Positions 2,211 through 41,049 of a stretch of 64,000 nucleotides of DNA are shown here, piece by piece. Positions within the stretch are counted from its first letter, which is position 1, and each line of letters begins with the position of its first letter. The stretch is from NCBI GenBank assembly GCA_964556565.1, contig CAZKWF010000001.1, positions 97,035 to 161,034 of the forward strand. The letters run 5' to 3'. Made by a program: the position numbers and the translations under genes. The stretch comes from an uncultured Candidatus Bathyarchaeia archaeon (GTDB taxonomy: Archaea > Thermoproteota > Bathyarchaeia > Bathyarchaeales > Bathyarchaeaceae). The notes beneath the pieces were generated by a model. It worked only from the letters and a program-made list of their open reading frames with translations. It had not been told where the DNA came from and did no database searches.

Positions 2211-3194
2211 TTGTCTGACGAGCGAAGAAGAACAAAGTATGACATTTACGCAGACATAATAGAAGTGATTGCAAGGAAGGGTGTATGCTCTTTAACTAGA
2301 GTTTCTTATGGGGCGAATATGCCTGTGGATAGATTGAAGAAAACGTTGAATTTTCTGGTTTCACATGGGGTCGTAAGAGAAATAACCGTAGGCGACCGCA
2401 AAAAATACAGAGCAACAAAATGGGGCCTAGAATATCTGGAAGCATTCAAGCGCATGCAGAAATTCTTCGCCGCGTTAGAAGAACCTGTAACAGTAAAGAT
2501 TCCAGAGGTCGTTCTTCCCGGTCGCGTTACTACAGGGTACAAAGACCTTGATAACATGTTGTTTGGCGGGATACCTGAAAACTACGCAGTCATATTGACC
2601 TCACCTTCATGCGATGAAAAAGACCTTCTAATTAAGAGATTTCTAAAAGCCGGAGCGAAAGAGGGGCAAATCACGTTTTACGTTACTACAGAGGCGGTGG
2701 GAGTGGGGGCTTTAGTAGAGGAGTTTCAATCAAACTTTTACGTTTTCATATGTAATCCTCAAGCGGACAAGATGATAAAAAGCCAACCTAATGTATTCAA
2801 ATTGAAGGGTGTGGAAAACCTTACTGACATTGGCATTGCTTTGGCCTCAGCGTTCCGCAGGTTAGACAACTCACTCAAAGTTCCAAGAAGGGCTTGCATA
2901 GAAATAATCTCTGATGTCTTGTTGCAACATCATGCGGTTCATACTAGAAGATGGTTGACTGGGCTCCTTCCTGATTTGAAATCAAGAGGTTTTACTTCTT
3001 TGGTAGTAATGAATCCGCACATGCACTCCCCACAAGAAGTTCAGGCGGTTTTAGGACTATTTGAAGGAGAGATCAATATCTTCGAGAAAGAGACAGAGAA
3101 AGGTTTAGAGAGATTCCTGAAAATCAGGAAAATGTATAATCAACGATATTTAGAGAGCAAAATGCCTCTGAGGAAGGAAAAATTGAAGACATGA
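2211..3194 (+). CDS. winged-helix (HTH_45-like) protein fused to a P-loop-less KaiC/RecA-like domain
   Basis: TTG start with GGAG about 12 nt upstream. The N-terminal ~90 aa look like an archaeal wHTH (DIYADIIEVIARKG..LTRVSYGANMPVDRLKKTLNFLVSHGVV). The C-terminal ~230 aa align to the KaiC-like ATPase at 7783..8541 (TTGYKDLDNMLFGGIPEN vs ATGISGLDELVGGGIPEG). At the Walker A position the sequence reads LTSPSCDEKD. Confidence 0.8.
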   Translation: MSDERRRTKYDIYADIIEVIARKGVCSLTRVSYGANMPVDRLKKTLNFLVSHGVVREITVGDRKKYRATKWGLEYLEAFKRMQKFFAALEEPVTVKIPEVVLPGRVTTGYKDLDNMLFGGIPENYAVILTSPSCDEKDLLIKRFLKAGAKEGQITFYVTTEAVGVGALVEEFQSNFYVFICNPQADKMIKSQPNVFKLKGVENLTDIGIALASAFRRLDNSLKVPRRACIEIISDVLLQHHAVHTRRWLTGLLPDLKSRGFTSLVVMNPHMHSPQEVQAVLGLFEGEINIFEKETEKGLERFLKIRKMYNQRYLESKMPLRKEKLKT

Positions 3195-3200
3195 AAGAAT
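2481..3200 (+). repeat. 720-bp direct repeat, copy A (3' part of 2211..3194)
   Basis: Aligns without indels to 6981..7700 at a constant 4500-nt offset. Identity is mosaic: 3005-3157 has a single mismatch, 2761-2820 has 3 mismatches, and 2641-2700 is strongly diverged. Confidence 0.9.
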
Positions 3201-3493
3201 AGAAGTGAGTGCTGAAAAGTCTAAACTACTGAGAATCTTGTTGTTGCATTAATGTATAGCATCTGTGAAGTCGTGTCAGAGTTCTTGTGAGTTATACATG
3301 AGGGTAGGCTTTCGGTTACGTCGGAATGAAGACAAAAAACCATGATTAGACAAGAGAGCAAATCAGTATTTTATGCACTCATGGATCAGTTTTTTAGGTC
3401 CTTATACATACAGACAGACAAAACTTATTAGATCACAAAATGTAATTCCTACGCAATGATTCTAGGTCCACGAAGAAGAAAGGAGGTGATAGA

Positions 3494-3622
3494 TTGGTAG
3501 CTCCTAATTGTCCAACGTGTGGGAAGCCAATGAAAAAGGAGAAACATGGTTATAAGTGTAAAACCGGGAATTGCGAAGACAAGTATATGTGCATTCCACA
3601 GAGCATTTTTGACATACGATAG
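3494..3622 (+). CDS. possible 42-aa zinc-ribbon protein (below the ORF-track cutoff)
   Basis: AGGAGGTGA at 3481-3489 lies 4 nt upstream of the TTG at 3494. Translation: LVAPNCPTCGKPMKKEKHGYKCKTGNCEDKYMCIPQSIFDIR, with a stop at 3620-3622. It contains CPxCG plus two or three further Cys. Confidence 0.3.
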   Translation: MVAPNCPTCGKPMKKEKHGYKCKTGNCEDKYMCIPQSIFDIR

Positions 3623-3770
3623 TGCACTAATACTTCGGAAGCTTCAAGTCCCCCATTGTCTTCGTCACTGTATAGATTCACCCAATGCATGCATGCAAGC
3701 GTCCTCATTGCATACATGCCTGCAAGATGAAGCGAGATAATAGACGTGCGCATGCCATGGAGAGAAAAAA

Positions 3771-6700
3771 ATGGAAGATGTTCTTAGCAAGGCTGGAGAA
3801 TTGGAGAAGGAGTACAATTGGGTAATGGCCACAGATCTCCATAAGCAGGCTTTGAGCAGACTTAGAAAAAGAGATTTTTGGAAAGCTGGTGAGGTCGGAG
3901 AGAGGATTGCCTACTGCCTCTGGCGGGCTGCGTTTCAAGCCGAGACTCAAAAAGATTTCTGGAGGCGCATGGAGGTGTCGGTGGAGGCCTATGAAGAGGC
4001 AGCCAAGTTATTTGAGAGGTCGAAAGATTCCGAGAGCCGTACTAGAACGAACTTTTGCAGAGCAATGGCCACATATAACAAATCTAGATTTGTTGGGGGT
4101 ACTGAAAGAAAAGCGTTGCTGGACGAAAGCTGGAAATTAGAGAAGGAAACTTTGAGGGCTTTCAAGGAGGCTGGAGACCGCCTAGGCCAAGGAAAACTAT
4201 GCAACGAACTCCTATACTGCCTATATGATAGGTCTCGAATCGAGTGGGATGGACAGCAGCTGAGCAAAATTGTGGAGGAAGCGGTGGGCTATGGTGAAAC
4301 CGCTATAGACGCTCTCTCTCAAGTCAGAGATGAAAAAGAACTTGCTAGAGCGTATTCCATGACAAGTCTCCACTGTTACTACGGTGCGAACATTAGTGAG
4401 TCGGAGGAGAAAAAGAAGGAGTTCAGTCAGAAATGCTTGGATTACGCGAAGAGTGCTTTAAAGCTCTCCAAGAAAGTCGGAGACAAATATCTCACTGGTT
4501 TGTCGAACTGGGCAGCGGCTCGAGCCCTCCTTTTCTCTGGTAACATGGCATCGTCACTAGAACATGCTCAGAAAATGTTGCAGCAAGGCATGACCATACA
4601 AGACAACTACGTGATCGGAGTGGCATACTATCGACTAGCTTCCACCACCAACTGGATGATGGCGGTAGAAGAAGATCCAGACAAGAAAAGGGAAGGATAC
4701 AACAAAGCCATTCAATATGCTAAAGACGCGATACGCCATCTGCGCATAGTCGCTGATGATTATCTTGTTGCTTCAACCCCTCTTGCTGCGAACTACTTCT
4801 TTCTGGCATTTGAAGTTGAGACGAACCAAGAAGAAAAGCGGATTTTCTTGGAGAGGGCCGTTGAAGCTGGGCGGAAAAGCCTAGAACACGCTGAGCGATC
4901 AGGTTCTCCAGAGGCCATTGGAGCCAACCTCCATGAATTGAGCAAAGCCTTGTACTCCCTTTCCAACGTGAAAACGAAAATCAGGGAGAAAAAAAAGCTG
5001 CTTGAGGAGGCGTCGAAGCACAGACAAGGTTACGCAAACATTGTAGAAAGGCTATATCCATCCAACTACTGGCTTCGCGGTGTAGGTCAAAACTATCAAG
5101 CTTTGATAAGAGCTGAGTTAGCTAAGACAGAGCCAAAGAAGAAAAAGAAAAGAGAGCTCTTAGAAGAAGCCGCCTCAAACATGGACAATTGCCTGAAATT
5201 AATCGAAAAATGGGCAGAACTATACCCGCAGACAAGAATTTTCGCCGTCCTTGGAGAGTACTATGACTGGTTTGGTAGCATCCTGAACCAGTTGTGCTCG
5301 CTGACTAAAGATGAAAAGGTCTTGAAAGAGGCTATTGAAGCTTATGAAAGGGCTGTCAGCATGTATAGTAAAGCTGAGCTACCAAGTCGCGTGGCTGAGG
5401 CTCACTGGAATACAGCTAAGCTGTATGATTACCTCGGTGAATATGCGAAGGCCTCAGAAAATTTCGAGTCAGCGGCTGACGCATACAAAATATCTGCACA
5501 GAAGATACAGCGGCTCAATGATTTCTATTCGGACTACGTCACTTACATGCAGGCTTGGAGTGAAATAGAGAAGGCAAAACTTGCTCACGAGAGAGAAAAA
5601 TACACTGGTTCAGAGGAACATTATGATAAAGCTGCCAGCTACCTCCAATCTTCGACACTATGGAATTATCTCGCTCCAAACTATTCAGCATGGGCTCTTT
5701 TAGAACATGGTGAATATCTGAGTAGACAAGAGAAAAATCAAGAGTCAACACAGGTTTTCCAACGAGCGGCTGAGATGTTTAGTGAAGCTAAGAAATCTTT
5801 TGAGACGGCTTGGAGCAAAATCGTGGATCCGTATGAGAAAGAGAAAGTAAACGAACTAAGTAGAGCTTGTAACGGGCGAAAAGAATACTGTATCGGTAGA
5901 GTTAGAGTTGAAGAAGCCAGAGTGTTTGACAGAGAAGGTGATTATGAATCAAGCGCTAAGAGATATGGATTAGCAGCCAAAGCATTTGAAAAAGTACTGG
6001 AAGGAATGGAAATTGAGTCTGACCAGAGAGAGTTGCAGTCTATATTCTACTTGTGCCAAGCATGGCAGAAAATGAAGCTAGCAGAAGAGAGACTTGACTC
6101 AACCCTTTATGCAGAAGCATCCCGGCTCTTCATGAAAGCCAAGGAAAGCAGCCTAAAGAAAAGAACTAGTCTCTTAGCAGCCGGTAACTCCTGCTTCTGT
6201 AAGGCTCTAGAATTGGGCGCTAGATTCAAGGACACTCGAAACATGAGGTTCTACTCCAAAACTAAACAGTACATGGAAAGTGCATTTGATTGTTACACAG
6301 AAGCAGGCTTTGAAAAAGAGTCATTTTGGATCAACGCTACTCAAGTCCTGTTTGATTCCTATGTTTACATGGACAAGGCGGAGACAGAGGTTAATCCAGA
6401 GAAGAAGATGAGGTTATATCTTCTGGCTGAAAGATTCTTGGACCGTTCAGCAAATTTCTTTGAGAAAGCGGGCTATCTAAGAAAGAGAAATGAAGTTCTG
6501 AGGAGCATAGAGAAGGTGAAACAAAAACGCGAATTCATGCTCTCTTTAAGAGAGGTTTTGTCGGCACCGTCTATCGCCTCCAGCACTAGTAGCATATCGG
6601 CGCCAGCCCCAACCCATGAAGAAGCAGTCGGTTTAGAGAGGTTTGAACAAGCTTACGTCCAGGCGAATCTCATCGTTTGTCCCAAAAAGGCCAATGTAGG

Positions 6701-7694
6701 CGAAGACTTTGGATTGGAGATAAAACTTGTTAACACAGGGAAAGAACCGGCCTTGCTAGCCAAAATTGAGGGAATCCTCCCTCCAGGCTTCGACCCAGTT
6801 GCAAAACCTGATTACTGTCGCTTCGAAGACGCATATGTTGATATGAAAGGAAAAAAACTTAACCCACTAAAAACCGAAGAAATCAAACTCGCCTTAAGAT
6901 CGTTTGACAAAGGCACATTTGCGATAAAGCCGAGAATTGTTTATGTAGATGAAACTGGGCGTGAGATGTTTTGCGAGCCTGAACCTGTAACAATTAATGT
7001 TTCAGAAATCATTCTTCCTAATCGCGTCACTACAGGACATGGAAATCTTGACAATTTGCTTTTTGGTGGGATACCTGAAAACTATGCAGTTATATTGACC
7101 TCTCCTTCATGTGATGAAAGAGACCTGATGATTAAGACATTTCTCGAGACAGGGGCAAAGCGCGGCGAAGTCACATTTCATGTCACCATTGACGCAAGCG
7201 GCGTAAGGTCCCTCGCAGAAGATTTCCAGTCAAACTTCTACCTCTTTATCTGTAATCCTCAAGCAGACAAGATGATAAAAAGCCAACCTAATGTATTCAA
7301 ATTGAAGGGGGTAGAAAACCTTACTGACATCAGTATCGCCTTGACCTCAGCTTTTCGTAAATTGAACGAGTCACTGAGTGGTCCAAGAAGAGCTTGCATT
7401 GAAATAATCTCAGACATCTTGTTGCAGCATCACGCTGTTACTGCCAGGAGATGGCTAACAGGACTTATCCCAGAATTGAGGTCAAAAGGGTTCACCACTC
7501 TGACAGTAATGAATCCGCACATGCACTCCCCACAAGAAGTTCAGGCGGTTTTAGGACTATTTGAAGGAGAGATCAATATCTTCGAGAAAGAGACAGAGAA
7601 AGGTTTAGAGAGATTCCTGAAGATCAGGAAAATGTATAATCAACGATATTTAGAGAGTGAATTGCCTCTGAGAAAAGAAAGATTGGAAACATGA
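3771..7694 (+). CDS. 1307-aa TPR-like solenoid + beta-sandwich + P-loop-less KaiC/RecA-like domain protein
   Basis: ATG with GGAGAG 9 nt upstream. About 950 aa are helical and TPR-like (for example AEAHWNTAKLYDYLGEYAKASENFESAADAYK). A Ser-rich linker is followed by a CARDB/NEW3-like beta-sandwich (ANVGEDFGLEIKLVNTGKEPALLAKIEGILPPGF). The C-terminal ~230 aa are about 80 percent identical to the C-terminus of 2211..3194, and the P-loop position reads LTSPSCDERD. Confidence 0.85.
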   Translation: MEDVLSKAGELEKEYNWVMATDLHKQALSRLRKRDFWKAGEVGERIAYCLWRAAFQAETQKDFWRRMEVSVEAYEEAAKLFERSKDSESRTRTNFCRAMATYNKSRFVGGTERKALLDESWKLEKETLRAFKEAGDRLGQGKLCNELLYCLYDRSRIEWDGQQLSKIVEEAVGYGETAIDALSQVRDEKELARAYSMTSLHCYYGANISESEEKKKEFSQKCLDYAKSALKLSKKVGDKYLTGLSNWAAARALLFSGNMASSLEHAQKMLQQGMTIQDNYVIGVAYYRLASTTNWMMAVEEDPDKKREGYNKAIQYAKDAIRHLRIVADDYLVASTPLAANYFFLAFEVETNQEEKRIFLERAVEAGRKSLEHAERSGSPEAIGANLHELSKALYSLSNVKTKIREKKKLLEEASKHRQGYANIVERLYPSNYWLRGVGQNYQALIRAELAKTEPKKKKKRELLEEAASNMDNCLKLIEKWAELYPQTRIFAVLGEYYDWFGSILNQLCSLTKDEKVLKEAIEAYERAVSMYSKAELPSRVAEAHWNTAKLYDYLGEYAKASENFESAADAYKISAQKIQRLNDFYSDYVTYMQAWSEIEKAKLAHEREKYTGSEEHYDKAASYLQSSTLWNYLAPNYSAWALLEHGEYLSRQEKNQESTQVFQRAAEMFSEAKKSFETAWSKIVDPYEKEKVNELSRACNGRKEYCIGRVRVEEARVFDREGDYESSAKRYGLAAKAFEKVLEGMEIESDQRELQSIFYLCQAWQKMKLAEERLDSTLYAEASRLFMKAKESSLKKRTSLLAAGNSCFCKALELGARFKDTRNMRFYSKTKQYMESAFDCYTEAGFEKESFWINATQVLFDSYVYMDKAETEVNPEKKMRLYLLAERFLDRSANFFEKAGYLRKRNEVLRSIEKVKQKREFMLSLREVLSAPSIASSTSSISAPAPTHEEAVGLERFEQAYVQANLIVCPKKANVGEDFGLEIKLVNTGKEPALLAKIEGILPPGFDPVAKPDYCRFEDAYVDMKGKKLNPLKTEEIKLALRSFDKGTFAIKPRIVYVDETGREMFCEPEPVTINVSEIILPNRVTTGHGNLDNLLFGGIPENYAVILTSPSCDERDLMIKTFLETGAKRGEVTFHVTIDASGVRSLAEDFQSNFYLFICNPQADKMIKSQPNVFKLKGVENLTDISIALTSAFRKLNESLSGPRRACIEIISDILLQHHAVTARRWLTGLIPELRSKGFTTLTVMNPHMHSPQEVQAVLGLFEGEINIFEKETEKGLERFLKIRKMYNQRYLESELPLRKERLET

Positions 7695-7700
7695 AAGAAG
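6981..7700 (+). repeat. 720-bp direct repeat, copy B (3' part of 3771..7694)
   Basis: See copy A. The offset is exactly 4500 nt, and 7505-7657 is near-identical to 3005-3157. Confidence 0.9.
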
Positions 7701-7782
7701 GAGGCAGTCAGAGCGCAAGCTTTAGGATTCGTTGTACCTTAACAGACAGTACGTGTAAGGATATGTTGGAGTTTTTGTGGTT

Positions 7783-8541
7783 CTACTTTTCCCCAAATAG
7801 CGGCATGTTAGGAAAGATTTCAATGCCATTCTGATCTATTGAATATGGCACAAGGCTTGGGTTGACTTTTGCTTCTCTCATTTTTTCGACCTGTATCGCT
7901 CTCGTTGTAGTTCCACCTGAAAACAGAGTTTGCATCATGATAACCCCGTGAACTAGGAATTCTTCTTCCACAGCGTTACGTTCAAGACCCAAGTACCCGA
8001 GTTCAGTGGTCACAAGACTGGTAACTCCCAAGTCCGCGAGCGATTCAATCAAATCCACAATTGCGGTTCTTCGTTCTATAGGATCTGGAAATCTGTAGGT
8101 AAGTGCCGCTAAAGTGTCAACTACAACCCTTTTCGCTTTGGTGCGTTGGATTTGCGCTTGCAAATCTTCAACTAATTTATCGATAGATAGTTGTTTACCT
8201 CGTAAGCTGCGAGTCTCTTCTTTGTAGAGTTTCTCTTTCAGCATGGATACTCTTGACATTCGCGTTGCGTTTACGAAAGCAAATTTTCCCCCCTCTTCCA
8301 GTTTGCGAAAATCCCACCCGAATTTCTGCATTTCCGAGTAGAAGTGATCTTTACTCTCGTCTAGACTGACGAAAACTCCATTTTCTTGTTTTTCATGGAT
8401 TCCCTTATACAGGAATTGGCTGCACAAAATGGTTTTTCCAGCGCCTGGGCCCCCGATGACCAAAATGACCCTTCCTTCAGGAATGCCACCGCCAACCAGT
8501 TCATCTAAGCCGCTAATCCCAGTAGCAATCTTTTTTGACAT
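7783..8541 (-). CDS. single-domain KaiC/RecA-superfamily ATPase (COG0467-like)
   Basis: MSKKIATGISGLDELVGGGIPEGRVILVIGGPGAGKT has an intact Walker A. RVVVDTL is Walker B-like. The 252-aa length is typical of archaeal one-domain KaiC-like proteins. GGAG lies upstream of the ATG. Confidence 0.85.
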   Translation of the reverse strand: MSKKIATGISGLDELVGGGIPEGRVILVIGGPGAGKTILCSQFLYKGIHEKQENGVFVSLDESKDHFYSEMQKFGWDFRKLEEGGKFAFVNATRMSRVSMLKEKLYKEETRSLRGKQLSIDKLVEDLQAQIQRTKAKRVVVDTLAALTYRFPDPIERRTAIVDLIESLADLGVTSLVTTELGYLGLERNAVEEEFLVHGVIMMQTLFSGGTTTRAIQVEKMREAKVNPSLVPYSIDQNGIEIFPNMPLFGEK

Positions 8542-8580
8542 TTCTATTTCTCCTAGTGACTTTAGATAATCTTTAGTGAA

Positions 8581-8588
8581 TATTTATA
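8581..8588 (-). promoter_or_regulatory. TATA-like box (TATAAATA on the minus strand) for the KaiC-like gene, preceded by ATGCAT
   Basis: The minus strand reads gaatATGCATaaggTATAAATAttcac about 44 nt upstream of the ATG at 8541. This spacing fits an archaeal TATA plus a short SD-containing leader. Confidence 0.3.
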
Positions 8589-8762
8589 CCTTATGCATAT
8601 TCAGCACTAACATCCGTAGGTTTTGAACAGACATTTCTAGAGCGGCAAAACAGTCCGCATATCTGGAGGAACACTCATAATATAGTAACAAATTGTGACT
8701 ACAAGACGTGAGTTCCCCTTTTATGTCTCGGAATTACAGCTTACTATGTCGGAGGACTAACA

Positions 8763-10100
8763 GTGAACAGCAAAGTATCGGTCCCTTCGAGAAGTAGAAC
8801 AACGCTGGATTTTGTTGAAGGAAACTTGGTGATAGGCAGCCGTGCAGTTATCGATGGAACAGGAACACCACCCACAGTGAAAGTTTCTGGCACAATTTAC
8901 TGTGAAGGAGACAACACTTTCGAGTGCAACGTCTCAGCAGAAAACCTAGAAGCCGAAGACAACGTAACAATTCATGGAAACTTGGAAATAGAAAATGATG
9001 TTAAGGTGGAAGATGGCCACTTAGAAGTTCACGGCAAAATGACTGCAAAACGTGTAGATGTAGACGCAGCCCTATACGTGAGCAAGGATTTGACAGTTGA
9101 AAGAGTTGATGTTGGCGGAAGCCTAAAGGTTGATGGAAATGTCAAAGCCGAAAACATAGACGCAGGTGGAAGCTTCAAAGCCGAAGGAGAAGTAGAGGCA
9201 GAGAAAATAGACGTGGGAGGAAGCGTCTCAATCGAATCCAAAGTGAACATCACAAAACTAGATGTAGGCGGCACAGCAAAAGTTGGAGGCGGCGAAGTCC
9301 GCGAAGTAGATATCGGCGGAAGCTTTGAGTCGAAAGCCCCACTAGAGTTTGAAAAAATCAATGTGGGTGGAGTAGTTCGACTAGCCAGCAAAAACAAGGG
9401 TGGCGACGTAGATGTTGGAGGCTCATTCAAAGTCGAAGGGGACTTGGAGTTCAAAGACATCGATGTGGGAGGCAAAGTAGAGATAACTGGTTCCGGCGAA
9501 GGCTGCGAAATGGACGTTGGCGGCAAAGTGGAAGTAGGCAAGTCACTGAATCTCTCAGGAAACCTTGACGTAGGAGGCAAAGTGGGAGTCAACGAGGAAA
9601 TTTCAGCAAAAAACATCGAGGTAGGCGGAGTATTACGCTCAAGAAAGGCTACGGCAGAAGACTGCATAGATGTTGGCGGTTCAATAGTTAGCGTGGAAGG
9701 CGTAACGGCACGTTGTGTTGAAATAGGAAGAAGAGGCAAAGTCCGCGGACCCATAAAGGCAGACCAAGTCATCATAGGTAGAGACGCACATGCAGAAGAC
9801 ATCTATGGAAAGCAGGTTCTACTCAGAAGGGGGGCACAAGCAGAAAACGTCTACGGCGAAAACATCACCATAGAATCCAACTGTCACATATGTGGCGAAG
9901 TGCAGTATACTAATGAATTGAGAATGAACGAACATGTTACATTGACTAAAGAACCGCAAAAAGTAGATGCATACAAGCCAGCACCTTCACAAGCACCTGC
10001 TACTCCTACAGGGAAGAAGTATTGCCCACACTGCGGAACAGAGAATAAAGGTGACGCCATCTTCTGCAAAAAATGTGGAAAGAAGATACCAGAAGAGTAG
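8763..10100 (+). CDS. bactofilin-like beta-helix repeat protein with C-terminal zinc ribbon
   Basis: GTG start with GGAGG 8 nt upstream. About 17 consecutive ~17-residue coils with a [IVL]DVGG[SK].K[VA]EG pattern. A Pro/Ala linker precedes the C-terminal YCPHCGTENKGDAIFCKKCGKKI. Confidence 0.75.
   Translation: MNSKVSVPSRSRTTLDFVEGNLVIGSRAVIDGTGTPPTVKVSGTIYCEGDNTFECNVSAENLEAEDNVTIHGNLEIENDVKVEDGHLEVHGKMTAKRVDVDAALYVSKDLTVERVDVGGSLKVDGNVKAENIDAGGSFKAEGEVEAEKIDVGGSVSIESKVNITKLDVGGTAKVGGGEVREVDIGGSFESKAPLEFEKINVGGVVRLASKNKGGDVDVGGSFKVEGDLEFKDIDVGGKVEITGSGEGCEMDVGGKVEVGKSLNLSGNLDVGGKVGVNEEISAKNIEVGGVLRSRKATAEDCIDVGGSIVSVEGVTARCVEIGRRGKVRGPIKADQVIIGRDAHAEDIYGKQVLLRRGAQAENVYGENITIESNCHICGEVQYTNELRMNEHVTLTKEPQKVDAYKPAPSQAPATPTGKKYCPHCGTENKGDAIFCKKCGKKIPEE
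9051..9914 (+). repeat. 51-nt (17-codon) periodic coding repeat of the beta-helix protein
   Basis: Example units: RVDVGGSLKVDGNVKAEN / IDAGGSFKAEGEVEAEK / IDVGGSVSIESKVNITK / LDVGGTAKVGGGEVRE / VDIGGSFESKAPLEFEK, and so on. The periodicity is at protein level and the DNA copies are diverged. Confidence 0.75.
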
Positions 10101-40954: not shown

Positions 40955-41049
40955 GGGCCCGTAGCTCAGCAAGGATAGAGTTCAAAAGCGTCTACAGCAC
41001 CGGGCTTTTAACCCGGGGGTCTCGGGTTCAATTCCCGACGGGCCCGCCA
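40955..41049 (+). tRNA. tRNA-Lys (anticodon UUU) with a 17-nt intron in the D-arm; CCA encoded
   Basis: Acceptor GGGCCCG/CGGGCCC. Anticodon arm CCGGG-CTTTTAA-CCCGG. T-arm TCGGG-TTCAATT-CCCGA. The D-stem 3' strand GAGC is interrupted: ..ATAGAG[ttcaaaagcgtctacag]CA.. (about 40981-40997). The boundary is ambiguous by up to 2 nt because AG is repeated. Confidence 0.8.

Follow-up and report, generated by a model that had tools for sequence, protein, structure and literature searches.

In Rad55-Rad57, RadB and the Rad51 paralogues, a degenerate paralogue regulates an active RecA-fold ATPase, and in the GvpD-GvpE pair of gas-vesicle regulation a KaiC-like ATPase has been put forward as the modulator of a transcription factor. 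The cyanobacterial KaiABC clock is likewise built around a RecA-superfamily protein, KaiC, whose nucleotide or phosphorylation state is read by its partners. In the archaeon Haloferax volcanii, CirA, a homologue of KaiC, has effects on the shape and motility of the cells alongside the transcription factor CsmR (PMC13286277), and halofilins, archaeal relatives of the bactofilins, shape cells (PMC11459167). The closest described class is the "iKaiC, inactivated KaiC-like ATPase domain", listed in PMC5847659 in the forms iKaiC-REC, HalOD1-iKaiC, DUF835 and MEDS; according to that source, both the description of iKaiC and the hypothesis of KaiC as a signal transduction hub stem from Makarova, Galperin and Koonin (mBio 2017), so that the concept of iKaiC domains working with a KaiC hub is itself not new. 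Here we describe a locus that resembles this class in a 64-kb stretch of DNA from an uncultured Candidatus Bathyarchaeia archaeon (GCA_964556565.1, contig CAZKWF010000001.1, positions 97,035 to 161,034), referred to below as the window.

Four genes make up the locus: g1, a winged helix-turn-helix (wHTH) regulator of 327 aa that ends in a KaiC domain without a P-loop (the wHTH-iKaiC gene; 2211..3194, + strand); g2, a tetratricopeptide repeat (TPR) protein of 1307 aa with an ending of the same kind (the TPR gene; 3771..7694, + strand); g3, an intact KaiC of 252 aa (7783..8541, - strand, convergent with g1 and g2); and g4, a bactofilin-like gene (8763..10100, + strand). The first three had been named in an original prediction made from the sequence of the window, and a check of the open reading frames (ORFs) recovered each of them exactly, together with all of the quoted peptide blocks in the translations; g4 and the wider family of the pseudo-KaiC domain were absent from that prediction. 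We interpret the locus as a KaiC-centred regulatory module of Bathyarchaeia with the wHTH-iKaiC protein, KaiC and the bactofilin-like gene as its core and with KaiC docking on the iKaiC domain, a reading that we hold to be somewhat better than even (probability roughly 0.55).

This reading is carried by two surveys, one in which domains were mapped on 80 loci from GTDB genomes and a reciprocal one in which metagenome contigs were scanned starting from g4, yielding 57 loci with context (labels beginning with L denote related loci from these surveys). The unit conserved among them is a wHTH gene, with or without the dead KaiC domain, a convergent KaiC gene and the bactofilin-like gene. When the wHTH is fused to iKaiC, directly or through a beta-sandwich, it is nearly always followed by the convergent KaiC and then by a gene of 400-445 aa that passes the Pfam Bactofilin threshold. 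When the wHTH stands alone, it is a protein of ~95-105 aa, 77-88% identical to the N-terminus of g1 and encoded ~400 bp upstream of the same bactofilin-like gene; such loci have no KaiC within 10 kb, and none was found in the 355 kb that they span. In the GTDB genomes, KaiC occurs within 5 kb at 16/17 fused versus 0/16 stand-alone loci (Fisher test, p = 1.5e-8), and on the metagenome contigs at 22/25 fused versus 0/29 stand-alone loci (Fisher test, p = 3e-12). Both forms occupy a common syntenic slot, in the order PNP, wHTH, (KaiC), bactofilin-like gene, PhoU, PolD small subunit and Cdc6, and on a neighbour-joining tree of g4 homologues the state changes between fused and stand-alone at least 11 times, with KaiC never seen beside a stand-alone wHTH. 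Collectively, the survey association, the shared slot and the repeated changes of state indicate, at the level of sequence, that the iKaiC domain and the KaiC gene have been gained or lost together, repeatedly. No iKaiC or KaiC remnants were found in the ~400-bp spacer of the stand-alone-wHTH loci.

Joint gain and loss of this kind argues that KaiC may act by docking on the iKaiC domain. In the mechanism that we propose, the wHTH would bind a conserved palindrome just upstream of the TATA box of the bactofilin-like gene and set its transcription, and the iKaiC domain, which from its sequence should be unable to bind or hydrolyse ATP canonically, would serve as a homotypic docking or receiver surface for the neighbouring KaiC. 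Through its own ATP or phosphorylation state, KaiC could in turn alter how the wHTH oligomerises or occupies DNA. Several points weigh against this proposal. Fused loci without a nearby KaiC exist, namely L030 (a complete chromosome), L134, L135 and L158, and in L003 the bactofilin-like gene is missing as well. The Fisher tests take no account of phylogeny, the two surveys overlap in at least one contig (L002 and L097 are drawn from one JGI contig), short-contig loci in the genome survey counted as informative when a KaiC was seen, which slightly inflates the fractions, and the tree behind the at least 11 changes carries no support values. The palindrome is absent upstream of g1 and elsewhere in the window, so that it is tied to the wHTH by its adjacency, and the Sso10a family, to which the wHTH is related, includes general chromatin proteins. 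Finally, the loss of the Arg finger from most of the iKaiC family, as judged from the alignment described below, argues against a catalytically cooperative hetero-hexamer, with capping, stacking or peripheral docking remaining compatible.

That the C-terminal domains of g1 (aa 106-312, nt 2526-3146) and g2 (aa 1086-1292, nt 7026-7646) belong to the RecA/KaiC fold had been proposed from aligned sequence blocks, and both profile and structure comparisons agree. The domains match the Pfam KaiC family PF06745 with 48.3 and 43.4 bits, respectively (gathering cut-off 26.6), and a profile of g1 homologues run against the PDB finds KaiC, SSO2452 and PH0284. AlphaFold2 models of g1 (predicted local distance difference test, pLDDT, 80) and of g2 aa 941-1307 (pLDDT 85, predicted template modelling score 0.73), the latter with an all-beta part followed by a RecA fold, both have the archaeal KaiC-like protein PH0284 as their best Foldseek match in the PDB (template modelling scores of 0.72 for g1 and 0.75 for g2, E = 1e-11 to 1e-12), with SSO2452 and KaiC ranking next. 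The models thus place both domains in the RecA/KaiC fold. Over 237 aa, the dead domains of g1 and g2 share 80% identity, and BLASTP alignments of both to g3 are confined to the N-terminal ~70 residues (73 aa for g1, at 29% identity and E = 1e-6).

The Walker A position of both proteins reads SPSCDE[KR]D, as originally noted for the two genes, and an alignment of 138 family members gives the consensus [TA]-S-P-S-C-D-E-[RK]-[DE], in which the three glycines and the Thr are gone; on this alignment the loss of the glycine-rich P-loop is family-wide and the domain a genuine pseudo-ATPase. Across the same 138 members, the position of the Walker lysine stays basic (R in 102, K in 23) and Walker B stays acidic (E in 62, D in 55), there is no catalytic Glu, and most members lack the Arg finger (Y in 49, S in 22, R in 16), with Y at this position in both g1 and g2. 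Since they have no Walker A, no catalytic Glu and Y at the Arg finger, g1 and g2 are by sequence KaiC-fold proteins and not KaiC ATPases, and since the Arg finger is mostly lost, an iKaiC domain would not be expected to complete the ATP site of a neighbour in a mixed ring. The motifs that replace the catalytic ones are conserved to the degree usual for catalytic motifs, which suggests that the pocket has been re-purposed and has not merely decayed.

A re-purposed pocket could also mean that the dead KaiC works on its own, as a domain for sensing or oligomerisation like MEDS or DUF835 that binds a ligand or metal, and that KaiC belongs to the same pathway (for instance as a kinase or chaperone-like ATPase) but does not dock on it. 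The remodelled-pocket motifs SPSCDE[RK], CNPQAD, SDxLLQH and NPxMH would suit an autonomous role, as would the catalytic-like conservation of the loop and of several Cys, His and Asp positions, the basic residue at the Walker lysine, the retained acidic residue at Walker B, the fused loci with no KaiC nearby, and the presence of MEDS and DUF835 among the iKaiC-type sensor domains given in PMC5847659. Yet an autonomous sensor leaves unexplained why the KaiC gene and the domain appear and disappear jointly and why convergent pairs of an X-iKaiC gene and a KaiC gene recur with different X; moreover, neither g1 nor g2 has a Pfam match to MEDS (PF14417) or DUF835 (PF05763) at E <= 0.1. We therefore regard this explanation as unlikely. 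The related family DUF7504 (PF24336) matches g1 with 21.5 bits, below its cut-off of 27, and matches 41 of 78 representatives of the dead-KaiC family at E < 1e-3; a search of the literature library used here found no paper on DUF7504.

The locus thus shares with the iKaiC class, as presented in PMC5847659, a KaiC fold with broken ATPase motifs, fusion to signalling domains and a predicted partnership with active KaiC: homology and motif loss are found here together with fusions to wHTH, TPR, CBS, DUF11, FIST_C and AAA_16 and with the association with KaiC. The Bathyarchaeia family differs from that class in matching PF06745 itself and DUF7504 weakly, and not MEDS or DUF835, in its own SPSCDE[RK] loop, in having named homologues that all come from Bathyarchaeia, in its Sso10a-like wHTH, DUF11-like, TPR and CBS fusions, and in its tie to a bactofilin-like gene.

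Protein g4, of 445 aa and with a GTG start, is a predicted beta-helix protein that matches Pfam Bactofilin (PF04519) in two stretches with 43.5 bits (cut-off 27.9), as well as Zn_Ribbon_1, and that has a weak match to BacA (2n3d, E = 0.05). Passing the Bactofilin threshold is what it shares with bactofilins and halofilins; it differs from them in its length, its several beta-helix stretches and its C-terminal zinc ribbon, and it is known here from sequence. Taking g4 as the starting point, 54 of the 57 metagenome loci with context have a wHTH gene nearby, and g4 is accordingly the most constant partner of the wHTH and likely its regulated output. The intergenic region between the divergent genes g3 and g4 (8542..8762, no strand assigned) holds a palindrome and a promoter block and is the candidate wHTH operator. 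The order upstream of g4 is TAGTAACAAATTGTGACTA, ACGTGAGT, TTTTATG, GGAGG and the GTG start: the 19-bp palindrome, TAGTAACAAATTGTGACTA, lies at 8683-8701, just upstream of the TATA box, a GTGAGT box at 8708-8713, the TATA-like TTTTATG at 8719-8725, and GGAGG at 8751-8755, before the start codon at 8763. The palindrome is unique in the window, where 0.02 occurrences are expected by chance. A GTGAGT-N-TATA block with a TAGTCAC/GTGACTA element precedes the bactofilin-like gene in 30 genome loci and in 71/74 of the metagenome loci with enough upstream sequence, once per locus and always before this gene; the palindrome, too, is conserved and present once per locus. From its position next to this gene, the palindrome would be the site that the wHTH binds.

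The wHTH of g1, which the original prediction had recognised, matches HTH_45 (PF14947) over aa 6-85 with 49.8 bits (cut-off 25.5), and a g1 profile matches Sso10a and Sso10a-2 in the PDB (E~2e-4). In the AlphaFold2 model the wHTH is followed by a long helix at aa 70-89, as in dimeric Sso10a, so that the Sso10a-like winged helix and its dimerisation helix together take up aa 6-89 (nt 2226-2477); the linker at aa 90-99, which leads on to the dead KaiC domain, is disordered (pLDDT < 50). The modelled wHTH and long helix fit a dimer on a palindromic site. The resemblance to Sso10a raises another explanation, in which the wHTH is a general chromatin protein of the Sso10a type, the block upstream of g4 is simply the core promoter of that gene, and the two are linked by synteny without regulation. 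The Sso10a chromatin family (NF053610) is indeed the best NCBIfam match of g1, and the neighbourhood is broadly syntenic. Nevertheless, that match scores 48.6 bits and falls below the cut-off of 60, the wHTH and bactofilin-like genes stay together despite differing surroundings (in the window, L013, L016 and L017), the inverted repeat is conserved outside the TFB-recognition element/TATA region, and repeated gain and loss of a KaiC-coupled domain would be unexpected for a chromatin protein. Of the explanations weighed here we find synteny without regulation the least probable.

The TTG start of g1 and a promoter block upstream of it are kept in 45 loci. This block, at 2140-2210 in the window and in 45 related loci, reads CACCACAATTAAGATTAAGC-N6-CATTTAATAATAGTGGAA...GGAG and is unrelated to the bactofilin-gene palindrome. 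To see whether g1 might regulate itself, we looked for the palindrome in its upstream region as well; it is absent there, and g1 has this different conserved block. A difference in operator symmetry between fused and stand-alone loci was also considered and dropped, as L010, L014, L016 and L017 break the pattern. L006 has two copies of the promoter block of the bactofilin-like gene, at 7406 and 9346, one on each side of an insertion of ~2 kb that separates KaiC from the bactofilin-like gene. After the first copy comes an ORF whose product is small and apparently hydrophobic and begins with residues similar to those at the bactofilin-like N-terminus. The lineage of L003, L004 and L005 keeps the wHTH-iKaiC gene but has lost KaiC by deletion, along with the greater part of the bactofilin-like gene, of which a 37-residue remnant of the C-terminus persists beside the PhoU-like gene.

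Protein g3 had been called an intact one-domain KaiC, and it matches PF06745 with 211 bits and carries Walker A GGPGAGKT, Walker B VVVD, a catalytic LDES and a KMR finger. Its homologues, 63-98% identical, occur in 29 genome loci and in most of them adjoin the wHTH-iKaiC gene. While KaiC is central here as in the cyanobacterial clock, g3 is a single-domain protein that scores far below the circadian cut-offs (TIGR02655, 120 bits versus 546; PRK09302, 168 versus 408), and its partners are KaiC paralogues; no KaiA or KaiB was seen among the ORFs flanking the module, although no search was aimed at them. RadA and RadB models score far below their cut-offs at this locus, and whereas Rad51-type paralogues act in recombination on DNA filaments, nothing at the locus indicates repair. 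In the CirA-CsmR and GvpD-GvpE pairs, too, a KaiC-like ATPase is the proposed modulator of a transcription factor for shape, motility or structural genes, but their factor is without a KaiC-like domain, whereas here the dead KaiC is fused to the DNA-binding domain. An anti-phage defence role was rejected, as PADLOC gave no match for g1, g2 and g4 and only a weak generic ATPase match for g3 (mad8, 23.7 bits).

Nine KaiCs paired with wHTH-iKaiC proteins share an almost invariant C-terminal tail, which in g3 is NGIEIFPNMPLFGEK (window 7783-7830, aa ~238-252), and a likewise almost invariant TTT motif, at aa 211-213 of g3. Purely speculatively, the tail might serve as a docking peptide, with TPR domains as one conceivable partner, and TTT as a phospho-site. 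In L008 (9915-10670), the KaiC beside the wHTH-iKaiC gene is split into two ORFs of 158 and 95 aa, which may be a frameshift pseudogene or an assembly error.

The original prediction had also described g2 as ~950 aa of TPR-like solenoid plus a beta-sandwich, a description that stands in part. A TPR-like solenoid is assigned to aa 1 to ~960, of which the TPR_12 match (PF13424, 45.7 bits, cut-off 30.1) covers only parts of aa 504-960. The following region, aa ~963-1078 (nt 6657-7004), has a sub-threshold DUF11 match of 13 bits; a putative DUF11-like beta-sandwich is nevertheless suggested here by the AlphaFold2 model, since the region is all-beta (pLDDT mostly 80-93) and several close homologues carry PF01345/TIGR01451. 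The same TPR, beta-sandwich and iKaiC architecture (~1310 aa) is found at 37-47% identity in ~20 other Bathyarchaeia loci, at other positions; only in the window and in L006, a 94%-identical relative, does the TPR gene lie between g1 and KaiC. In L088, a close relative with the same upstream NIF3-like gene (in the window, ORF 1148-2080, 5' of g1), the wHTH-pseudoKaiC gene, KaiC and the downstream gene are present with no TPR gene, which indicates, from gene order, that the placement of g2 beside the core is a recent lineage-specific insertion. The association with KaiC is weaker for the TPR form than for the wHTH fusion: KaiC lies within 5 kb of the TPR-iKaiC gene in 10/16 informative loci, and the two are convergent and adjacent in only 3/19 loci. 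The genes found between them elsewhere, which from their translations we judge to be a methenyl-tetrahydromethanopterin cyclohydrolase, an M29 peptidase and a dockerin-like secreted protein, look like unrelated housekeeping genes and were rejected as additional parts of the module.

These distributions bear on the idea of g1, g2 and g3 as a linked trio, which the original prediction had envisaged as a hetero-oligomeric switch. Stated most strictly, the three proteins would form an obligate mixed hexamer, an ATP-driven switch leading from a TPR-bound input directly to transcription. They have a common fold and are neighbours in both the window and L006, L017 groups the same components in another order, L109 has a TPR-iKaiC gene convergent with KaiC followed by the bactofilin-like gene, and the 10/16 informative loci with KaiC nearby point the same way. 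On the other hand, the TPR gene is missing from the module in almost all relatives, L088 among them, housekeeping genes such as the putative cyclohydrolase separate it from KaiC elsewhere, convergent adjacency is rare, and most of the iKaiC family lacks the Arg finger. We consider an obligate hexamer improbable. The tight and repeated linkage of the wHTH-pseudoKaiC gene to KaiC is upheld by the co-occurrence survey, and the trio as a conserved unit is not; in its place the survey finds wHTH-iKaiC, KaiC and the bactofilin-like gene.

Between g1 and g2, a run of 117 nt is identical (3005..3121 in g1 and 7505-7621 in g2, both + strand), against ~77% DNA identity elsewhere in the common domain. 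Because the equivalent stretch is only 75-77% identical between the two paralogues of L006, the run in the window points to recent gene conversion between the dead-KaiC copies. The 576-bp spacer 5' of g2 contains an ORF of 42 aa (3494..3622, + strand) with a zinc-ribbon pattern (CPxCG...CxxxxC...IPQSIFDIR), which was not called as a gene and which is preceded by a strong Shine-Dalgarno-like AGGAGGTGA. Homologues lie 150-330 bp upstream of the TPR gene in L006, L033, L034 and L044; a strict pattern finds the ORF in 5/21 loci, and its Pfam zinc-ribbon matches are weak. By its position, the ORF may be accessory to the TPR protein.

To place g1 and g2 among their relatives, the dead domain was used in a full-library search, which gave 632 clusters at 50% identity, including 239 with E <= 1e-30. 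Nearly all members, which are proteins of 140 to 1443 aa, carry the domain at the C-terminus, and its N-terminal partners in 78 representatives include TPR (24), CBS, DUF11, an AAA_16/ATPase_2 NTPase and FIST_C; CBS-beta-sandwich and wHTH-beta-sandwich forms also occur, and several genomes have at least 3-4 iKaiC paralogues. All of the named homologues are from Bathyarchaeia, and automated annotation labels g1-type proteins 'predicted transcriptional regulator / KaiC/GvpD/RAD55 family RecA-like ATPase'. Taken together, these matches indicate that the pseudo-KaiC domain belongs to a large modular family. In view of this modular architecture and the enrichment near KaiC, g2 and the other fusions, with beta-sandwich, CBS, FIST_C and AAA_16/ATPase_2 partners, could be alternative clients of KaiC that feed inputs into it or compete for it. 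A more far-reaching and tentative version of the KaiC-centred module, possible in our view and less than probable, is a many-to-one network in Bathyarchaeia, resting on homotypic contacts between KaiC folds, in which several sensor-iKaiC proteins (TPR, CBS, FIST_C, AAA_16/ATPase_2, beta-sandwich) would report to one KaiC, and the wHTH-iKaiC protein would read the state of that KaiC and switch a bactofilin-type cytoskeletal gene. In such a network KaiC would correspond to the kinase and the iKaiC domain, in archaea, to a receiver domain, and lineages that have lost both would keep a constitutive stand-alone wHTH. In L057 (10040-11401), a protein of ~1548 aa with TPR and beta-sandwich parts has two iKaiC domains in tandem, and a convergent KaiC follows its gene.

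What appears to be new is the Bathyarchaeia family itself, with its own loop motif, fusion partners and tie to a bactofilin-like gene, together with the presence/absence series that couples the domain to KaiC. The proposal of a KaiC hub with iKaiC partners has stayed largely computational, and these loci offer a handle on it: the same factor gene occurs in the same slot beside the same target gene with and without the dead KaiC, and the KaiC gene tracks the domain. The wHTH-iKaiC protein, KaiC, the 19-bp palindrome and the bactofilin-like gene make up a minimal four-part system that could be reconstituted in vitro to learn how a KaiC ATPase communicates with its client. Confirmation of the output would tie KaiC signalling to a cytoskeletal gene in an abundant, uncultivated class of sediment archaea.

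Elsewhere within the 64-kb window there are no further KaiC or iKaiC copies, and no Rfam families fall inside 2211-10100. Outside the module, 40979-41038 weakly matches part of the Rfam tRNA model (positions 9-63), with 30.2 bits where the gathering score is 29; ARAGORN does not call this match, which could be a tRNA fragment or an intron-containing tRNA.

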